A DNA stretch of 10,089 nt from Nitrososphaerota archaeon (GTDB lineage Archaea; Thermoproteota; Nitrososphaeria; Nitrososphaerales; UBA57). Position 1 is the stretch's first letter, and every line of letters begins with the position of its first letter. The notes under the pieces are model-generated. The model saw only the letters and a list, made by a program, of their open reading frames with translations, searched no databases and was not told the origin of the DNA. Below are positions 3,855 through 10,089 of this stretch, piece after piece. The stretch is taken from positions 1 to 10,089 of the forward strand of contig JACAFS010000036.1 of assembly GCA_013378385.1 (NCBI GenBank), written 5' to 3'. The position numbers and the translations under genes were made by a program.

Positions 3855-6017
3855 ATGTCTATAGTTGATTCCATAAAATCTATCAAGCTTGATTCTATAA
3901 GACCCGTAACATCAAGACAAACACTTGTAATTGTAATGACTTTGTCTATTATATTCTCTGCAGCACTTATGCTGAGAATCTTTCCTGTAAAATACGGTTA
4001 TTTTCTCAATGAATTCGATCCCTTCTTTGACTATTATGCATCAAAATTTATTGTTGACCATTTTGACGCAAGTGGAATTAGTGGTTTATTAGATTATTTT
4101 AGTTGGCATGATTACAGAACTTGGTATCCAGAAGGAAGACCTGTAGCTAGAACTTCTCAGGTCGGTCTTCACTTTGCTGGCGCCTTATTTTATATTTTAG
4201 CAAGGGATGTTTTTGGATTAACTAGTTCCCTATACGATTTCGTCGTCATCTTTCCGCCAATCGTTGGTGCGCTTAGTATAATTCCAGTCTACTTGATTGC
4301 ACGTCGTGTTACTTCTGAAGGAGGAGCACTTTTCGCCAGCTTGCTTATTGCATTCTCAACGTCAATAATCCAAAGAGGCAATCTTGGTTGGTTCAAATCT
4401 GAGCCTTTTGCGTTACTTCTTTCTCTATCCGGTAGCTATTTATTCCTAACAATGTTTGACCCCGATCGCTCACACCGTAATCTTGTGCTACGTGCTGTAT
4501 TGGCAGGAACACTTATGGGAATATCACTCACAGCATGGGGAGGATCCCAATTCTTTAACATTGTATTCGCTGTATTGATTCTTGTTATACCGTTCATCAA
4601 AGTTGACCAACAGAAAGCCGTTTTTACCACATCGATCTTCGTAGCATTATATATTATCACAGCTGCAATATCTCCAAGACCAGGAGCAGCTTTTATTCTT
4701 TCTCCAGCAGGTCTAGCATTATTAGGTTCACTCGCTTTTGCTATTCTTGCAAATGTTATCAGACATTATTCACATGCATTTGAATATGTTAATATTCTCA
4801 AGAATACAGTAATTGGACTGTTCTTTAGCGCAGTTGTAATTCTAAGTTTAGGATTCTTATCTGAAGTAAGTGGACGCTATCTTACTGTAATCATGCCATT
4901 TCGAAGAAGTGGAGTTCCGTTGGTCGAATCTGTAGCAGAACACTTTGTTCCAACTGGAGCGCAGTTCTTCCAAGAATATATGATTCTATTACCATTTGCC
5001 GTGTTTGGAGCTATGCAATTACTTAACAAACGTGACATTAGTTCTGTCTTCGTTCTCGTATTGGCAGCTTCGGGTGTTTACATATCTGGTTCATTCTCCC
5101 GTTTAATGATCTTCTCGTCCATTGCCATTGCTCTTCTTGCAGCAGTAGGGTTCATCACAGTTACATCAGCTATATTTCGTCCATTATTGACAGGCATTGG
5201 AAAACAAGCTACCGGTAAATCGGAAACCCGGACAGGACTGAAAATTATGTATTCACTCTTCATGATTGTAGTACTATGTTTCCCAGTTATTGCACCATCT
5301 TACGGATACAATTGGGTGCTATCCGCAGACATACCAACTAGTATTTCTAATTCGGGCAGTACGTTCAGAGGACACGATCCAAGTTTCCTTGAAGCACTTG
5401 CATGGATGGAATCTTCTACTCCAGAAGACTCTGTAATTGCTGCTTGGTGGGACTATGGATATTGGATTACTGTCATGGGCAATCGGACAAGCCTGGCGGA
5501 CAACGCAACAATTAATGGCACAAGAATCGAAGTTCTTGGTCAAATGTTTATGTCGCCGGAGGAGGAATCATTGGAAATTCTAGATTCACTTGACGCAGAT
5601 TATGTTTTAATATTCCTAGCAGGAACAAAAACCGGAAACCAACAATTTGGAGATCTATATCTTCTGGGCGGAGGCGGAGACGAAAGTAAGAAACAGTGGT
5701 TTATACGAATTGGAGGATTTGATGAAGCTCAATTTCTAGAGGCTGATGGATTTTCACCTAATGAGAATTTATGGGAGAATTCATTCCTTGGTCGACTTAT
5801 GCCATTTACATGGGAGCTCGCCATAGATGCCGAAAATAATGTCTATCAAGAATACGAATTCAATCCTGAAACAACTGATCTTTACAAATATCAGATGAAA
5901 TATCCTGCAGACGGAAATGGTCCTTTAAGACTAGCATTCGCATCATCAAGTTTGCAACCAGATGCGCCAGAAGGTCGTTTTAGTGGTGTATTGATTTACG
6001 AAATAGTAAAAGACTAG
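3855..6017 (+). CDS. aglB: Dolichyl-(mono/di)phosphooligosaccharide-protein glycosyltransferase AglB (STT3 homologue)
   Basis: 720 aa, ~13 N-terminal TM helices, early acidic loop NEFDPFFDYY. Catalytic WWDYGYW at nt 5445-5465 (W531-W537), followed by NRTSLADNATINGT. DK-type motif GDESKKQWFIRIGG (D609 at nt 5679). ATG directly abuts the rps27e TAA (TAAATG). Confidence 0.9.
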   Translation: MSIVDSIKSIKLDSIRPVTSRQTLVIVMTLSIIFSAALMLRIFPVKYGYFLNEFDPFFDYYASKFIVDHFDASGISGLLDYFSWHDYRTWYPEGRPVARTSQVGLHFAGALFYILARDVFGLTSSLYDFVVIFPPIVGALSIIPVYLIARRVTSEGGALFASLLIAFSTSIIQRGNLGWFKSEPFALLLSLSGSYLFLTMFDPDRSHRNLVLRAVLAGTLMGISLTAWGGSQFFNIVFAVLILVIPFIKVDQQKAVFTTSIFVALYIITAAISPRPGAAFILSPAGLALLGSLAFAILANVIRHYSHAFEYVNILKNTVIGLFFSAVVILSLGFLSEVSGRYLTVIMPFRRSGVPLVESVAEHFVPTGAQFFQEYMILLPFAVFGAMQLLNKRDISSVFVLVLAASGVYISGSFSRLMIFSSIAIALLAAVGFITVTSAIFRPLLTGIGKQATGKSETRTGLKIMYSLFMIVVLCFPVIAPSYGYNWVLSADIPTSISNSGSTFRGHDPSFLEALAWMESSTPEDSVIAAWWDYGYWITVMGNRTSLADNATINGTRIEVLGQMFMSPEEESLEILDSLDADYVLIFLAGTKTGNQQFGDLYLLGGGGDESKKQWFIRIGGFDEAQFLEADGFSPNENLWENSFLGRLMPFTWELAIDAENNVYQEYEFNPETTDLYKYQMKYPADGNGPLRLAFASSSLQPDAPEGRFSGVLIYEIVKD

Positions 6018-6169
6018 TCATATTTCTCAGCGATTCTCAACCTTGCATATTTATCATCAGGAGAGAATTTAGCTGGATGAGGAGACAAGGTCTTTTCATT
6101 ACATTTAGGGCATGTTTCCTGTAAGCTATACTCTGAACACTTTGGGCATTTCTTTAAAAGCTTTTTCAT
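6014..6169 (-). CDS. nop10: H/ACA RNP component Nop10 (51 aa), absent from the supplied ORF track
   Basis: Hand translation of the minus strand: MKKLLKKCPKCSEYSLQETCPKCNEKTLSPHPAKFSPDDKYARLRIAEKYD*. CPKC-x9-CPKC zinc ribbon plus HPAKFSPDD matches archaeal Nop10. Its ATG overlaps the aIF2alpha TAA (TAATG); its TAG overlaps the aglB TAG. Confidence 0.88.
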   Translation of the reverse strand: MKKLLKKCPKCSEYSLQETCPKCNEKTLSPHPAKFSPDDKYARLRIAEKYD

Positions 6170-7003: not shown

Positions 7004-8395
7004 TTAGATAGAAGAAGTTGATAATAACCAAAGACCAAGTACAGTATAACCAACCATGAGCAGCAATATGGGCGCTTGACTTATGATTGATTTCTTGCTA
7101 TCCTTGAAAATTCTAAGAGATATTCTGTGTGCTACATAAACTGAAAGTATGTGACCAATCACAATTACAGCAACCTGGTAATTCCATAGCAATATGAAAT
7201 CTATTGCCCTAACAATCTCATAAGAACTTGTTCCAAATATATCCCAACCAAAACCAAACGGATCAGAAATCAGCTTAATTATCAGCTGACCGTTCAAAAA
7301 GAAATACGAAGAATAATGCGCTAAATGGTAAACAATTGATATAGGCAGAAGAGCTGGAACAAATCTTTGCGCAAGATCTACAACCGTTATGTCAGTTTGC
7401 GTAATAACTTTGGCTATTGTTACAAACGAATAGAATACAGAGAAGAATACAATAAATGACAATAAAATTCCTATTGTATTAACATAAATTACATCTAATC
7501 GTCCGCTTCCTCCAAATACATCTATTCCGATAAAATCATACCAAAACAAAGTAGAAATCAATCCATCGAACGACACCACGGATAATATCAAAATCAGAAA
7601 ACAAAGTTGATCAAAACGGTAACGTACGTCAAGTAGCCCAGATGCAATGGGACGTAACAGTATCTTTCCATCTGATGTTACACGAGTCATAGAAAAACTC
7701 GAAACAAAATTAAAGAAAACAGTAAAAGGTTCGCAGTTATTCAACCATTTGTCCTTTCCAAAGACCCGCATTCCTGCCAAAACAATTACCGAATAAACAA
7801 AAATTATGTTTCCGAGAAACTGGGGATATGCAGGTGTAGGATAGACCAACTCTATCCATGCAAATATGAGGAAAAACCCGAAGGCAGGCCATGACTTTAA
7901 CTTCTCTGGATACTGTCTCAGAGGCTTCTCATTGAACTTGATTAATTCAAAAATGTTTTTCCATGGATTTACAAAATTCCAACTGTCGCCAAACAGTATG
8001 TGCAGCCATATGAATCCTCCCCACCAAATTACCCAAACAAATGTTGGTGCAAAATTCTTTATTGGAAATTGCGCTCCCAATACTCCAGTAAGAATAGTCA
8101 GTATGAACAATCCAATCGAAATAATTTTGAAAACGTTCAACAGTGATTTATTCTTGTATAACGTATTGACAAAACCAAGATTGCGTAAATTATAAGTCCG
8201 ATACGAATCGTCGTATGACTTGCTCTTTACAAATAGACTAATTATGGCGAATGAAGCGATTACCGCAGCTCCACCACCTAACCAATACAGATATCCAGGA
8301 ATGGGAAGATCTATCTTCGAACCAAAACCATGAGCATAAGCATTGGGCAGAAGCAATAATTGAAGTAGGATTATGGTAAAAAATATTTTCTTCAT
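7004..8395 (-). CDS. Uncharacterised polytopic membrane protein (~11 TM) with signal-peptide-like N-terminus
   Basis: 463 aa. MKKIFFTIILLQLLLLPNAYA|HGFGSKIDLPIP (AxA-type cleavage site, then His22). About 10 further hydrophobic helices. His pairs in C-terminal helices (SIVYHLAHY; IGHILSVYVAHR). No transporter family confidently recognised. Confidence 0.8.
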   Translation of the reverse strand: MKKIFFTIILLQLLLLPNAYAHGFGSKIDLPIPGYLYWLGGGAAVIASFAIISLFVKSKSYDDSYRTYNLRNLGFVNTLYKNKSLLNVFKIISIGLFILTILTGVLGAQFPIKNFAPTFVWVIWWGGFIWLHILFGDSWNFVNPWKNIFELIKFNEKPLRQYPEKLKSWPAFGFFLIFAWIELVYPTPAYPQFLGNIIFVYSVIVLAGMRVFGKDKWLNNCEPFTVFFNFVSSFSMTRVTSDGKILLRPIASGLLDVRYRFDQLCFLILILSVVSFDGLISTLFWYDFIGIDVFGGSGRLDVIYVNTIGILLSFIVFFSVFYSFVTIAKVITQTDITVVDLAQRFVPALLPISIVYHLAHYSSYFFLNGQLIIKLISDPFGFGWDIFGTSSYEIVRAIDFILLWNYQVAVIVIGHILSVYVAHRISLRIFKDSKKSIISQAPILLLMVGYTVLGLWLLSTSSI

Positions 8396-8429
8396 TTCTT
8401 GAACGTATATCTAATTGTGTAATCTCAAC

Positions 8430-8436
8430 AAAAAAA
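8430..8436 (-). terminator. T7 tract between the 267-aa gene and the membrane-protein gene (terminator or attenuator; ambiguous)
   Basis: A7 on the plus strand is T7 on the coding strand, 10 nt after the TGA at 8446-8448. The only TATA-like element for the downstream gene (TTAGATATAC, ~8404-8413) sits just ~15 nt from its ATG. So this may instead be a read-through bicistron, or the T-tract may belong to a promoter. Confidence 0.25.
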
Positions 8437-8445
8437 CTTATTGAA

Positions 8446-9249
8446 TCAAGCCTTAGGCATGACTTCCAAGAATCCAATCAATGTGGCTTTTTCCTCTTCT
8501 TCATGTCCATGTTCCTCTTCCATGTCCATTCCTGGTTCCATCATGCTTTCTATTACAAATGTTTGACTTGCTTGGTTCCCGATTAACTTGTGCTCAGCAT
8601 TAACCAAGCTAACGTAAACTGTATGCTCGCCTTTTGTTATTGATTTCAAAATATACGCTTTCTCATCAAATACCATCAATGCAGAATGATCGTCATCTGT
8701 GATCTCTTCATCTAATTTAATATGCCAATGTATCCCTTTAGAAGGAAATTCTACACCCTCAATTTCCACCGAAACAGTTGCCATATTGTCCATTACCATC
8801 ACTGATTCAATACTAATCTTCGCATTACTCAAATCCATATTCATGTCACCCATATCGCCCATATCATCTTCTCCAGAATGTATCTCAATATCAAACCTGC
8901 CTGGGAGCGTCGCAGAAAAACTCAATACCCTAACCTCATCTGCCATGAGCATTATCTCATGATCGTATTCGTGTATATGAAACCTCAGATTCTCATCAGA
9001 TTTTATGTTAAGCAATACTTGATCCCCTACTTCTACCGAAATTAAAGGCGGATCTAAAGTCATCTTTCGATTAATTATATTTATTTCAAATTCCTTTAGT
9101 TTCTCTTCATCGACCTCTTTAGAAACTTTAATCTCTATCTGATTTTCAACAGATTCATCTTCTGTGCCAGTAAATGTGAAAGCAACCATTGCTAGAAAAA
9201 TTAAACCAACTATTCCAACTAGAAAATTCTTATTTTTTTGTGTACTCAT
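8446..9249 (-). CDS. Membrane-anchored extracytoplasmic two-domain protein: Cys-less cupredoxin-like domain, a second beta-sandwich-like domain, and Met/His-rich motifs
   Basis: 267 aa. N-terminal anchor FLVGIVGLIFLAMVAFTFTG. Cupredoxin-like pattern LISVEVGDQVLLNIKSDENLRFHIHEYDHEI...LSFSATLPGRFDIEIH, lacking the Cys ligand. MGDMGDMNMD linker. Second domain has GIHWHIKLD...KGEHTVYVSLVNAEH. Tail MMEPGMDMEEEHGHEEEE. Confidence 0.8.
   Translation of the reverse strand: MSTQKNKNFLVGIVGLIFLAMVAFTFTGTEDESVENQIEIKVSKEVDEEKLKEFEINIINRKMTLDPPLISVEVGDQVLLNIKSDENLRFHIHEYDHEIMLMADEVRVLSFSATLPGRFDIEIHSGEDDMGDMGDMNMDLSNAKISIESVMVMDNMATVSVEIEGVEFPSKGIHWHIKLDEEITDDDHSALMVFDEKAYILKSITKGEHTVYVSLVNAEHKLIGNQASQTFVIESMMEPGMDMEEEHGHEEEEKATLIGFLEVMPKA
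8833..8862 (-). repeat. Short imperfect tandem codon repeat encoding MGDMGDMNMD
   Basis: Plus strand atc cat att cat gtc acc cat atc gcc cat reads, on the minus strand, as ATG GGC GAT ATG GGT GAC ATG AAT ATG GAT (residues 130-139). Confidence 0.6.
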
Positions 9250-9341: not shown

Positions 9342-9716
9342 CTATCCAGCGCCACGTGGTGCTTGACATACTCCAGCTGGGGAATGACATCTACCAGTCT
9401 GTGCATTGCATACTTGGGCTCCTCCACATCCACAGTCGAATTGACATGTATTGCAAAGTTCGTGAGCATCACATACACCATTACCACATGAGTTCGATAG
9501 AGTTGTACAGGTTTCTGCATCCATCCAATTTGGACATTTATATTTTGGTGCATTTGGAAGTAAAGGTGATATGTCGCCAACCGCAGAGATAGATAACGAT
9601 TCATCTTCTTCACCTATTCCTAACATTGGTACTCCACCTGTAAAGATCATATAACCTACTATTGCAGTTGCTATGAGAAGCGGAATAGGAATAAATTTTT
9701 CATATTGGGCTGACAT
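9342..9716 (-). CDS. Membrane-anchored small protein with extracytoplasmic 11-Cys domain
   Basis: 124 aa. N-terminal anchor FIPIPLLIATAIVGYMIFTGG, acidic linker. C-terminal KCPNWMDAETCTTLSNSCGNGVCDAHELCNTCQFDCGCGGAQVCNAQTGRCHSPAGVCQ contains a CGNGxCDxxExCxxCxxDCG-type module. Own TATA-like box ~31 nt upstream. Confidence 0.7.
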   Translation of the reverse strand: MSAQYEKFIPIPLLIATAIVGYMIFTGGVPMLGIGEEDESLSISAVGDISPLLPNAPKYKCPNWMDAETCTTLSNSCGNGVCDAHELCNTCQFDCGCGGAQVCNAQTGRCHSPAGVCQAPRGAG

Positions 9717-9781: not shown

Positions 9782-10089
9782 TTATCTGGGTATTACGGTA
9801 ATGGTTCCCATCATGTATGGATGTGGCTTGCAAAAATACTGGAATGTACCAACCTCATCAAATACGAAACTTGCATAGTCCTGTCTCTGCATATCCATGT
9901 CGAATATATTGTCCGGAGAAGTCACTGAATGAATTACATCATCTTTATTGTACCAAGTTACCTTCGTTCCTTGTACTATTGTTAATCCATGAGGTTCAAA
10001 ATTATAATTCTCGATATCTATCTGAATTTCACCCATTCCAATCACATCAAGAATCAAAAAGAAGGTCTTGACCGTGTTCTGGCTCTTTG
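9782..10089 (-). CDS. Type-1 (blue) copper protein, plastocyanin/amicyanin-like cupredoxin; 5' end probably outside the window
   Basis: Full T1 Cu ligand set: His in DDVIHSV, then FCKPHPYMMG (Cys-x2-His-x3-Met), ending TITVIPR. The track's 'M' at 10057 is really TTG. The frame stays open to 10089 (...KSQNTVKTFFLILDVIGMG...), so the N-terminal signal or anchor likely lies beyond the edge. An internal ATG at 10036 is the alternative start. Confidence 0.85.
   Translation of the reverse strand, partial: KSQNTVKTFFLILDVIGMGEIQIDIENYNFEPHGLTIVQGTKVTWYNKDDVIHSVTSPDNIFDMDMQRQDYASFVFDEVGTFQYFCKPHPYMMGTITVIPR

Follow-up and report, generated by a model that had tools for sequence, protein, structure and literature searches.

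We find that the 267-residue protein encoded near one end of the window (the whole stretch of 10,089 nucleotides analyzed here, from a marine, ammonia-oxidizing archaeon of the Nitrososphaerota) has a cupredoxin-like fold without the type-1 copper ligands, and we tentatively propose, with somewhat less than even confidence, that it is the extracytoplasmic metal-binding subunit of a two-gene uptake module, whose other member is the 463-residue polytopic membrane protein encoded downstream and whose metal is most likely copper. Read from sequence, the pair is probably an uncharacterized copper or iron uptake system, with copper favored and iron possible. The open reading frame described in an earlier note on this DNA is real and encodes 267 amino acids, none of them cysteine, and the positions given there for HIHEYDH, MGDMGDMNMD, and MMEPGMDMEEEHGHEEEE agree with the sequence (Table 1). 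Homology searches provided 50 close homologues of the protein and 1,310 representatives of the wider family (E ≤ 1e-3, clusters at 50% identity).

Table 1. Features of the two-gene module and its upstream neighbors, in window coordinates
Feature	Position	Strand	Basis
463-residue polytopic membrane protein gene, with signal peptide	7004..8395	-	Alignment of 27 diverse homologues, AF2
50-nt spacer with seven-T run and TTAGATATA	8396..8445	-	Conserved
267-residue cupredoxin-like protein gene, stop codon included	8446..9249	-	Open reading frame list, homologues
C-terminal strand KATLIGFLEVMPKA, closing the cupredoxin barrel	8449..8490	-	AF2 strand 256-264; kept in short forms
Met/acidic/His segment MMEPGMDMEEEHGHEEEE at insert exit	8491..8544	-	E244 and E245 invariant
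Inserted DUF4399-like beta-sandwich, residues 140-235	8545..8832	-	Absent in same-locus orthologues; AF2 strands 144-233
Met/Asp linker MGDMGDMNMD at insert entry	8833..8862	-	Varied (MxM) in all long thaumarchaeal forms; short forms without it
Cupredoxin-like core, strands 1-7, residues 50-125	8875..9102	-	AF2 strands, Foldseek, profile matches
E122-I123-H124 on strand 7	8878..8886	-	HMMER alignment to NirK and conservation counts
HIHEYDH motif	8959..8979	-	H91 and H93 family-wide (HxHG/E-Y-D); H97 in Thaumarchaeota only
Predicted N-terminal membrane anchor, residues about 4-27, lysines ahead	9169..9240	-	AF2 helix 4-24
124-residue membrane-anchored Cys-rich protein, upstream	9342..9716	-	Conserved neighbor in Thaumarchaeota
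Plastocyanin-type gene, 3' part, cut by window end	9782..10089	-	Pfam Copper-bind 3.3e-9; frame open to window end

A Cupredoxin Barrel with an Altered Metal Site

The AF2 model of the 267-residue protein is moderate (pLDDT 67, pTM 0.44) and contains seven strands within residues 51 to 125 and one more at residues 256 to 264, which together make up the eight-stranded Greek-key barrel of cupredoxins. Two kinds of comparison bear out the fold that had been suggested from the sequence. Foldseek against the PDB retrieved cupredoxin domains at an overall rmsd of 1.5 to 2.5 over 71 to 80 columns, including CuA domains (about 2 over 80 columns), the Cupredoxin_1 structure 4hci (TM 0.72), FtrB (8vuk), and EfeO (7wgu), and a family profile searched against PDB sequences matched NirK (1.8e-7), CuA (6e-7), nitrosocyanin (1.7e-6), and SLAC. 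The wider family was needed to reach these relatives, as a thaumarchaeal profile returned chance antibody matches alone from the same PDB sequences. The protein scores 17 bits (E = 0.006) with Pfam Cupredoxin_1 (PF13473), under the gathering threshold of 27 bits, which is passed by the relatives P0161 (41.1), P0150 (33.6), and P0056 (27.6), while others fall short of it; the family looks like a divergent sister group of PF13473 or a sub-group within it. In the last cupredoxin strand (residues 254 to 267), G259, L261, E262, and P265 are invariant (position 262 is Glu in 155 of 191 relatives), and the strand aligns with MMGTITVIPR, the last strand of the plastocyanin encoded in the same window.

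The loss of the Cys ligand that had been noted earlier is confirmed by the HMMER alignment to NirK, where I123 stands at the position of the type-1 Cys, and, in the alignment with the plastocyanin of the window, an acidic loop or the insert takes the place where the ligand loop would be. PF00127 (plastocyanin/azurin) was not matched by the protein in the Pfam search. As the earlier note had argued, a blue-copper electron carrier can be rejected: the protein has no Cys, its ligand loop is replaced, and with these the ligands of a type-1 site are lost.

Contrary to what had been supposed, HxH was not newly acquired in place of the Cys loop; the motif sits at the type-2/type-3 ligand positions of NirK and multicopper oxidases: H91 aligns with the type-2 His of NirK (HMMER), E122 with the NirK His that precedes the type-1 Cys, and HLHG with H101-W-H103-G of CueO, the alignments being weak (hhalign probability 8%). 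The HxHG, H91, and E122 positions are thereby shared with NirK and with the first domain of such multicopper oxidases as CueO and two-domain laccases, and we take the family pattern GRFxxExH to parallel the laccase motif G-T-x-W-Y-H-x-H. Unlike these enzymes, the 267-residue protein is a single domain, with no second cupredoxin domain that could supply the rest of a type-2 or trinuclear site, has Glu (or Thr) for one His, and lacks a type-1 center feeding electrons. A metallochaperone or binding subunit, which the earlier note had preferred to a redox protein, is still the best-supported reading, but the location of the HxH at type-2/type-3 positions means that a redox or oxidase role, of the kind proposed for FtrB and for the cupredoxin domain of EfeO, has to be weighed against it.

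In thaumarchaeal orthologues, H91, H93, H97, E122, and H124 are all invariant. Among the 191 relatives, HxH is retained in about 183, position 124 is His in 158 and Glu in 31, and position 122 is Glu in 147, one His of the multicopper oxidase and NirK motifs being Glu or Thr here, and the conserved motif set of the family reads HxHGYD ... GRFxxExH ... LGxLEVxP. Of the histidines whose conservation the earlier note proposed to check, H91, H93, H124, H174, and H176 are, but H97 is not kept beyond the Thaumarchaeota.

By prediction, the protein is membrane-tethered and extracytoplasmic. The positive-inside rule suggests that its N-terminal anchor is oriented N-in with the domain outside, and many bacterial relatives have lipobox (lipoprotein) signal peptides at the same position; both agree with the periplasmic placement proposed earlier.

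An Optional Domain Inserted before the Last Strand

The second domain, which had been read as fused to the first, is an optional insert in the loop that leads from strand 7 to the last cupredoxin strand. Orthologues of 161 residues at the same locus have neither the insert nor the Met motifs and retain the tail, and we rejected a C-terminal domain fusion on these short orthologues and on the alignment with the last strand of plastocyanin. The insert of this protein bears only a weak likeness to DUF4399 (PF14347), the family suggested in the earlier note (13.2 bits, E = 0.12, over profile positions 8 to 87 of 91, against a gathering threshold of 28 bits), but 11 of 18 homologous inserts reach E ≤ 1, the lowest value being 4.3e-5. 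No solved relatives of the inserted domain were found. Its invariant residues are H174 and H176 (8722 to 8730), G207, and H220 (8590 to 8592). H220 is absent from the histidines that the earlier note listed. The Met motifs, which that note had also singled out, are present with variation in the long forms but are confined to them, flanking the insert; at the position of the insert exit, the short forms retain an acidic, His-rich loop (EEEEEEHDHDEEE).

Linkage to a Polytopic Membrane Protein

In 57 of 86 loci, the gene directly upstream of the membrane-protein homologue encodes a member of the cupredoxin family and has the same orientation; in the other 29, no family member was detected. The linked loci span Thaumarchaeota, Chloroflexota, Proteobacteria, Actinobacteria, and other phyla, including replicons of Mycolicibacterium and Variovorax, and the pair is adjacent in every thaumarchaeal locus examined. 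This adjacency across phyla supports a functional tie between the 267-residue protein and the downstream gene. Haloarchaeal loci are missing the cupredoxin partner, a C2H2 zinc-finger protein being paired with the membrane gene instead, and the link of the two families is therefore frequent and not obligatory. The module as a whole is met again in Dehalococcoidia, Proteobacteria, Actinobacteria, haloarchaea, and further groups. In the window, the two genes are separated by the 50 nucleotides reported earlier, and this spacer is under strong constraint, with an identity of 88 to 90% vs. about 59% at third codon positions. Its seven-T run could be an archaeal terminator, and TTAGATATA appears TATA-like. 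The earlier reading that the membrane gene has no convincing promoter of its own is no more than a possibility. A search for an RNA element in the spacer gave no Rfam family and no stable fold.

The AF2 model of the partner is confident (pLDDT 87, pTM 0.86), and the membrane-protein family has at least 1,300 homologues. Its invariant residues are H22 (8330 to 8332), E182, D277, H360, D378, H415, and H423, the set including acidic residues and histidines of the membrane helices. H22 follows directly on the predicted AxA signal-peptide cut and is invariant in 27 of 27 diverse homologues, A21 is conserved in at least 90%, and haloarchaeal homologues likewise have ASA/HG at the predicted cut, so that His is the first residue of the predicted mature protein, as in histidine braces of the CopC, LPMO, and PmoB type. 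One homologue, P0312, has an extracellular Pro/Thr-rich tail, which fits a partner C terminus outside the cell.

The partner matched no family in Pfam (E ≤ 1) or NCBIfam, and Foldseek with its model against the PDB gave nothing below E = 0.09, with TM scores ≤ 0.2. This PDB result led us to reject a known transporter or redox fold. Ftr1/EfeU (PF03239) was rejected in the absence of a Pfam or NCBIfam match and of REXXE in the alignment of 27 homologues, and CopD (PF05425) in the absence of a Pfam match and at an hhalign probability of 0.3% between the membrane family and CopC-CopD fusions. Transport is an assumption, because the partner has neither CopD homology nor a transporter-fold match in the PDB.

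In most homologues of the partner, a Lys/Arg-rich loop, presumably cytoplasmic, contains an insert of the form CxxCxxxC...CxxCxxC. Together with the histidines in two adjacent membrane helices, this insert suggests a redox module, in which the membrane protein would move electrons via haem (H360, H415, H423) and a cytoplasmic Cys-rich cluster, exchanging them with a mononuclear copper site of the cupredoxin-like subunit; a metal reductase or oxidase at the cell surface would be one example. HiPIP genes, cytochrome c fusions, and plastocyanins are found among the neighbors, one partner homologue is labeled "polyferredoxin" in one source, and Nitrosopumilus maritimus reduces Fe chelates by a reductase that is unidentified (PMC6776035). 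We nevertheless consider such a module improbable: only three membrane histidines are invariant, which would not suffice for two haems, the Cys-rich insert is absent from the membrane protein encoded in the window and from all marine relatives, Foldseek against the PDB found no fold likeness to cytochrome b, ferric reductases, or NapH-type proteins, and Pfam gave zero matches to redox-cofactor motifs.

Copper-Type Neighbors and Their Exceptions

YtkA-like genes occur at 33 loci, 16 loci have a His-rich membrane protein, and in P0150 YtkA-like domains are fused to the same cupredoxin domain. CopC-CopD-cytochrome c fusions stand directly upstream of the membrane gene in 8 loci where a cupredoxin-like gene went undetected, and the membrane protein therefore adds to CopC-CopD and does not replace it. 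Plastocyanin genes adjoin thaumarchaeal pairs; that of the window carries a true type-1 site (H...CxxHxxxxM), and its full length is 228 to 234 residues in loci L001 and L002. A tie between the cluster and Nmar_0815, an iron-responsive plastocyanin, was considered and is at most speculative. The 124-residue Cys-rich protein between it and the pair has no family match in Pfam or NCBIfam and, going by synteny alone, may belong to the module.

Some loci bring to mind copper tolerance or buffering, in which the cupredoxin-like protein would sequester surplus copper, or another heavy metal, outside the cytoplasm and act alongside efflux ATPases. P1B ATPases adjoin the membrane gene in Haloferax, Haloarcula, and locus L083, where a P-type ATPase with heavy-metal-binding motifs lies upstream (the haloarchaeal enzyme has Zn/Cd-type scores that exceed its Cu-type scores), many bacterial and haloarchaeal copies are on plasmids or megaplasmids, and Cupredoxin_1 also holds a His-rich protein of a copper-tolerance operon of Myxococcus (PMC3707914). 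In oligotrophic marine Thaumarchaeota, however, the pair belongs to a conserved core region that also holds housekeeping genes (primase, ribosomal proteins, eIF2-alpha), in a habitat scarce in copper and iron, and thaumarchaeal and Dehalococcoidia operons lack an efflux pump; of the explanations considered, tolerance is the one to which we give the least credence.

Comparison with Known Uptake Systems

Among the known systems closest to the proposed capture and uptake of metal are those of FtrB (FtrABCD) and of the EfeO N-terminal cupredoxin domain (EfeUOB). Both are single domains without the His-Cys-His-Met type-1 site, extracytoplasmic, and co-encoded with the membrane component of a metal uptake system, as in the candidate system here, and they share with the 267-residue protein conserved His and carboxylates, acidic patches, and the structural match described above. 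They differ in that the partner here is unrelated to Ftr1/EfeU, that the 267-residue protein is membrane-anchored and has an inserted domain, and that the described FtrB site is D118/H121, compared with the HxHGYD, GRFxxExH, and LGxLEVxP motifs here; no sequence-level match was found between either protein and the 267-residue protein.

FtrB binds Cu(II) and accelerates Fe(II) oxidation in vitro (PMC11966278), which favors a possible, though unlikely, explanation by oxidase-dependent iron uptake: a copper cofactor at the His/Glu cluster would oxidize Fe(II), the acidic stretches would hold Fe, and the membrane protein would replace an Ftr1/EfeU-type permease. FtrB and EfeO are among the closest single-domain structures, the ligands occupy the positions of catalytic type-2/type-3 sites, and Glu-rich loops are invariant. 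In addition, haloarchaeal membrane-gene homologues neighbor P19-like (PF10634) and DyP-like genes, which are other Ftr/Efe parts, locus L006 has a Fe-type SBP_bac_6 gene next to the pair, and in marine ammonia oxidizers, including the model strain N. maritimus, an iron-specific transporter has not been recognized (PMC6776035, PMC9723733). The haloarchaeal neighbors and the closest structures point to iron no less than to copper. Against iron uptake, Pfam (E ≤ 1) gave no FTR1 match for the membrane protein, REXXE motifs are absent from it, the commonest operon partners are copper types (YtkA-like, CopC-CopD, plastocyanin), Met-rich motifs fit Cu(I) and not iron, and the P19/DyP context was encountered in haloarchaea only, where the cupredoxin partner is missing.

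Copper capture has parallels of its own. CopC-CopD (YcnJ-type) likewise combines an outward beta-sandwich binder, for which the 267-residue protein is a candidate, with a polytopic membrane protein, keeps YtkA-like operon company, and has an N-terminal His after predicted signal-peptide cleavage, here on the membrane partner; the two systems have no homology. CupA of Streptococcus pneumoniae is a membrane-anchored Cu(I) chaperone for a nearby-encoded membrane transporter and belongs to Pfam Cupredoxin_1 (PMC5552934). Like the 267-residue protein, it has one N-terminal membrane helix and one cupredoxin-like domain without type-1 copper, and its Pfam family is the one whose threshold some relatives of our protein pass. 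CupA has its domain on the cytoplasmic side and works for an efflux ATPase, whereas the family described here is predicted to face outward, lacks Cys, and has His and Glu at other positions.

A Model for Metal Capture and Hand-Over

In the two-gene uptake module that we favor, the barrel would present an open candidate cluster of H91, H93, E122, H124, and probably E262, on the sheet face that, in nitrite reductase and multicopper oxidases, builds the copper sites between domains. The flexible loops rich in Met, His, and Asp/Glu would act as capture arms for scarce metal ions, and the inserted DUF4399-like domain, with its second His triad, could provide an extra arm in this lineage. The bound ion, most likely copper, would then be transferred to the histidine at the N terminus of the membrane partner and from there along D378, E182, D277, H360, H415, and H423 to the cell interior, in a hand-over resembling that of CopC feeding CopD or of FtrB and EfeO serving Ftr1-type permeases. 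The fold, the placement and conservation of the candidate ligands, the inserted domain, the gene linkage, and the metal-related neighbors are observed; that the protein binds metal, which metal this is, which way it would be transported, and that the two proteins touch are our inferences.

A bolder and distinctly doubtful extension of this model, less probable to us than oxidase-dependent iron uptake, is that the two genes form an unrecognized, widespread class of metal importer, in which a permease of new fold with a copper-binding N-terminal histidine works with a cupredoxin that retains, of the ligands of multicopper oxidases, only the inter-domain, type-2/type-3-like set. The cupredoxin itself would be related, as a free-living protein, to the single-domain ancestor postulated for multicopper oxidases, its site would be completed by the His triad of the insert, a second copy of itself, or the N-terminal His of the permease, and the importer would be the missing high-affinity route for copper or iron in marine ammonia-oxidizing archaea and SAR202-type Chloroflexota.

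The module would add a membrane protein fold without a solved relative, and the type of cupredoxin that it contains bears on the evolution of multicopper oxidase sites. Homologues occur in the cultured hosts Variovorax paradoxus, Mycolicibacterium, Rhizobium, and Haloferax volcanii, which makes the question testable. Copper acquisition by ammonia-oxidizing archaea has been described as poorly understood (PMC7785015); if the pair does belong to such a class of importers, the route by which these marine archaea take up copper or iron would be accounted for.

A cupredoxin fold without a type-1 site

The window protein, a 267-aa cupredoxin-like product, is firmly supported as an outward-facing cupredoxin that lacks the type-1 site and carries a conserved His/carboxylate cluster. 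Its ORF, three motif positions, and the 50-nt gap to a 463-aa membrane gene, as described in the earlier note, all match the sequence. The proposed cupredoxin-like fold is borne out by predicted strands, structural matches, and family profile matches: AlphaFold (pLDDT 67) predicts seven strands within residues 51-125 plus an eighth spanning 256-264, and Foldseek against the PDB retrieves CuA domains (80 columns at rmsd ~2), 4hci (a Cupredoxin_1 protein of Bacillus anthracis; TM 0.72), FtrB of Brucella (8vuk), and the cupredoxin domain of EfeO (7wgu). These structural neighbours speak for a rival reading, iron uptake, in which the copper-loaded window protein would act as a ferroxidase; such a role has been proposed for FtrB (PMC11966278). 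A profile built from 81 diverse family members and compared with PDB sequences matches NirK (1.8e-7), CuA (6e-7), nitrosocyanin (1.7e-6), and two-domain laccases (~1e-5). The window protein scores 17 bits against Pfam Cupredoxin_1 (threshold 27), and several relatives exceed that threshold. With respect to the Cupredoxin_1 group (CupA, EfeO-Cup), it looks like a divergent relative. It has 50 close homologues, and a profile run against 1.84 billion cluster representatives brings the family to 1310 proteins at E <= 1e-3.

The claimed loss of the Cys ligand also stands: the protein contains no Cys, and HMMER alignment to NirK places I123 at the type-1 Cys, E122 at the His preceding it, and H91 at the type-2 copper His (FHA). 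Alignment to CuA puts H91 three residues past the canonical ligand His, and a weak hhalign match to Escherichia coli CueO (probability 8%) pairs HLHG with H101-W-H103-G, residues that serve CueO as type-2 and type-3 ligands. Single-sequence hhalign to the window's plastocyanin sets H91 on the type-1 His instead, leaving some uncertainty in the exact ligand register. Over 191 relatives, HxH (H91, H93) is kept in ~183, position 122 is E in 147 and T in 33, position 124 is H in 158 and E in 31, and position 262 is E in 155; among the first-domain His residues named as candidates in the earlier note, H91, H93, and H124 are thus widely kept, but H97 is invariant only in Thaumarchaeota. Judging from strand periodicity, H91, H93, E122, H124, and E262 should share the non-core face of one sheet.

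The His-triad domain is an optional insertion

The DUF4399-like beta-sandwich at residues ~140-235 had been read as a second domain fused to the first, which is not what its relatives indicate. Thaumarchaeal orthologues occur in two lengths (256-274 aa and ~161 aa) at the same locus, with the same neighbours on both sides, and the short ones wholly lack residues ~137-236 while keeping the last twelve residues, ILIGFLEVMPKA. This tail, which follows the motif LGxLEVxP[RK] across the family, aligns with MMGTITVIPR, the final strand of the true plastocyanin at the window end. Because the short forms keep the tail, and the tail is the last cupredoxin strand, the domain must be inserted into the loop that joins strands 7 and 8, the site of Cys-His-Met in blue copper proteins. 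Across the family the content of this loop varies, some members having no insert and others a plastocyanin-like domain, a beta-sandwich similar to this one, or two inserts, and the optional nature of the His-triad domain is firmly supported.

H174, H176, G207, and H220 are invariant among homologous inserts, which confirms the conservation of the two His residues singled out before. The suggested resemblance to DUF4399 holds in part: it is the nearest family, matched by 11 of 18 homologous inserts (best 4.3e-5), but the window's own insert reaches only E = 0.12. The Met motifs are likewise real and lie at both insert junctions but are missing from the short forms; an acidic and His-rich stretch is present in long and short forms alike. 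The same His-triad beta-sandwich (DHWH...GEH...H) also precedes a genuine plastocyanin domain in P0081 and P0152, both thaumarchaeal, and is therefore a mobile module associating with copper domains.

Gene neighbourhood and linkage

Besides the genes in the table, the window encodes archaeal housekeeping products (primase subunits, GINS, L44e, S27e, the AglB/STT3 oligosaccharyltransferase, and eIF2-alpha), and its nearest relatives carry Nitrososphaerales or Thaumarchaeota annotation, which places its origin in a marine ammonia-oxidising archaeon. The Nop10 gene overlaps the eIF2-alpha stop codon by 1 base and the AglB end by 4 bases.

Features of the window around the cupredoxin-like gene
Feature	Position	Strand	Remarks
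Nop10 gene	6014-6169	-	51 aa; between eIF2-alpha and AglB
Membrane partner gene	7004-8395	-	463 aa; downstream of window protein gene
Spacer between the gene pair	8396-8445	-	50 nt, fixed length
Window protein gene	8446-9249	-	267-aa ORF
Cys-rich membrane-anchored protein gene	9342-9716	-	124 aa; conserved neighbour in fetched loci L001-L003
Plastocyanin-type gene	9782-10089	-	intact type-1 site; cut by window end

The spacer is 88-90% identical among four thaumarchaeal loci, far above the ~59% at third codon/synonymous positions of the flanking gene, so it must be functional, and it may terminate, attenuate, or promote transcription. Seven consecutive T directly follow the stop codon, and a TATA-like TTAGATATA stands at -19 to -11; neither an Rfam match nor a stable fold was found for the spacer. 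Bacterial versions of the pair, whose genes abut or overlap, argue for a shared operon in bacteria.

We fetched 80 membrane-gene loci from Dehalococcoidia, other Chloroflexota, Alpha-, Beta-, and Gammaproteobacteria, Rubrobacter, Rokubacteria, Methylomirabilia, Tectomicrobia, Nitrospiraceae, and Caldarchaeum, and ran the cupredoxin profile against their ORFs. Together with six earlier loci, 57 of 86 contain a family member, nearly always immediately upstream of the membrane gene on the same strand, and in many cases abutting or overlapping it. Annotated Mycolicibacterium rufum and Variovorax paradoxus replicons carry the pair as well, with both genes labelled hypothetical. When neighbouring ORFs were clustered, the recurrent partners were a C-terminally anchored YtkA-like protein (33 loci), a small membrane protein whose His-rich motif reads DHH...HxH (16 loci), CopC-CopD-YtkA-cytochrome c fusions directly upstream (8 loci), and, in one locus (L083), a P-type ATPase with heavy-metal-binding motifs. 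Within gene sets for metal handling, a tight, ancient link of the window protein to an uncharacterised membrane protein is firmly supported.

In Thaumarchaeota the pair adjoins plastocyanin-type genes and the Cys-rich secreted protein, whose outer part holds 14 Cys (CPNW...CGNGVCDAHELCNTCQFDCGCGG...) and for which no family match was found. Orthologues of the window-end plastocyanin span 228-234 aa; Nmar_0815, a Nitrosopumilus maritimus plastocyanin reported to be induced by iron limitation, may or may not be its orthologue. Large PQQ-like beta-propeller proteins flank the thaumarchaeal cluster (L001 1029-6369, L002 1306-6774), divergently oriented PQQ-like propeller genes lie beside the membrane gene in two haloarchaea (L095 3523-4758, L096 3428-4597), and a YNCE-like propeller is found in 8 bacterial loci.

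The membrane partner

Pfam and NCBIfam searches with the membrane partner gave no match, and at least 1300 homologues are spread across many phyla. A confident AlphaFold model from 27 diverse sequences (pLDDT 87, pTM 0.86) has no fold match in the PDB by Foldseek (best E-value 0.09, TM <= 0.2), and the partner may represent a new protein type. Profile comparison with the CopC-CopD fusions indicates no homology. In an alignment of 27 diverse homologues, an invariant His directly follows the predicted signal peptide, preceded at position -1 by Ala in at least 90% (AYA|HGFG), and E182, D277, H360, D378 (motif SDPxGxxW), H415, and H423 are invariant.

In most homologues a Lys/Arg-rich loop contains a CxxCxxxCx6CxxCxxC insert (alignment columns ~285-310; e.g., P0294 and P0312), which is missing in marine Nitrosopumilaceae, the window included; one source labels a homologue with this insert "polyferredoxin." Lys/Arg counts in the loops suggest ten membrane helices, with both mature termini outside and the Cys-rich insert cytoplasmic, and a Pro/Thr-rich extension in P0312 is consistent with an outside C terminus. 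Alphaproteobacterial and Methylomirabilia versions bear an extra C-terminal domain of ~400 aa (L038 5845-8589, L030 1506-4349, L080 1432-4059), for which no Pfam match was found, and in 10 loci, including L048, a separate gene upstream encodes a protein of >370 aa that likewise has no Pfam match.

A candidate metal import system

A literature search found no characterised member of either family, and we infer metal binding, mechanism, and the role of the gene pair from sequence, predicted fold, and gene context. Haloarchaeal homologues of the membrane partner lack a cupredoxin partner; in its place, the membrane gene is preceded by one for a C2H2 zinc-finger-like protein of 85-88 aa, which has an acidic stretch and, at its C terminus, a membrane helix (L091 5375-5632, L093 4304-4570). 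Their other neighbours encode a heavy-metal P1B ATPase and HiPIP, P19-like (PF10634), DyP-like, and PQQ-like propeller proteins. P19-like (PF10634 + DUF7350) and DyP-like (DUF7405) genes lie at L091 4197-5261, L093 7425-8486 and 8473-9780, and L089 8331-9593. The P19-like and DyP-like neighbours echo the make-up of FtrABCD and EfeUOB, two systems for iron uptake, and this context, together with the structural neighbours of the window protein, supports iron uptake as a serious rival, if an unlikely one. Less likely are a pure electron-transfer module, which we regard as improbable, and a tolerance or buffering role, to which we give a lower chance again.

The most economical mechanism, which we hold tentatively and at slightly under an even chance, is that the window protein would capture a metal and hand it over to the membrane partner for import. 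Several features favour copper as that metal: the homology of the ligands, the arms with MxM and abundant His, the partner's N-terminal His, and the YtkA, CopCD, and plastocyanin neighbours.
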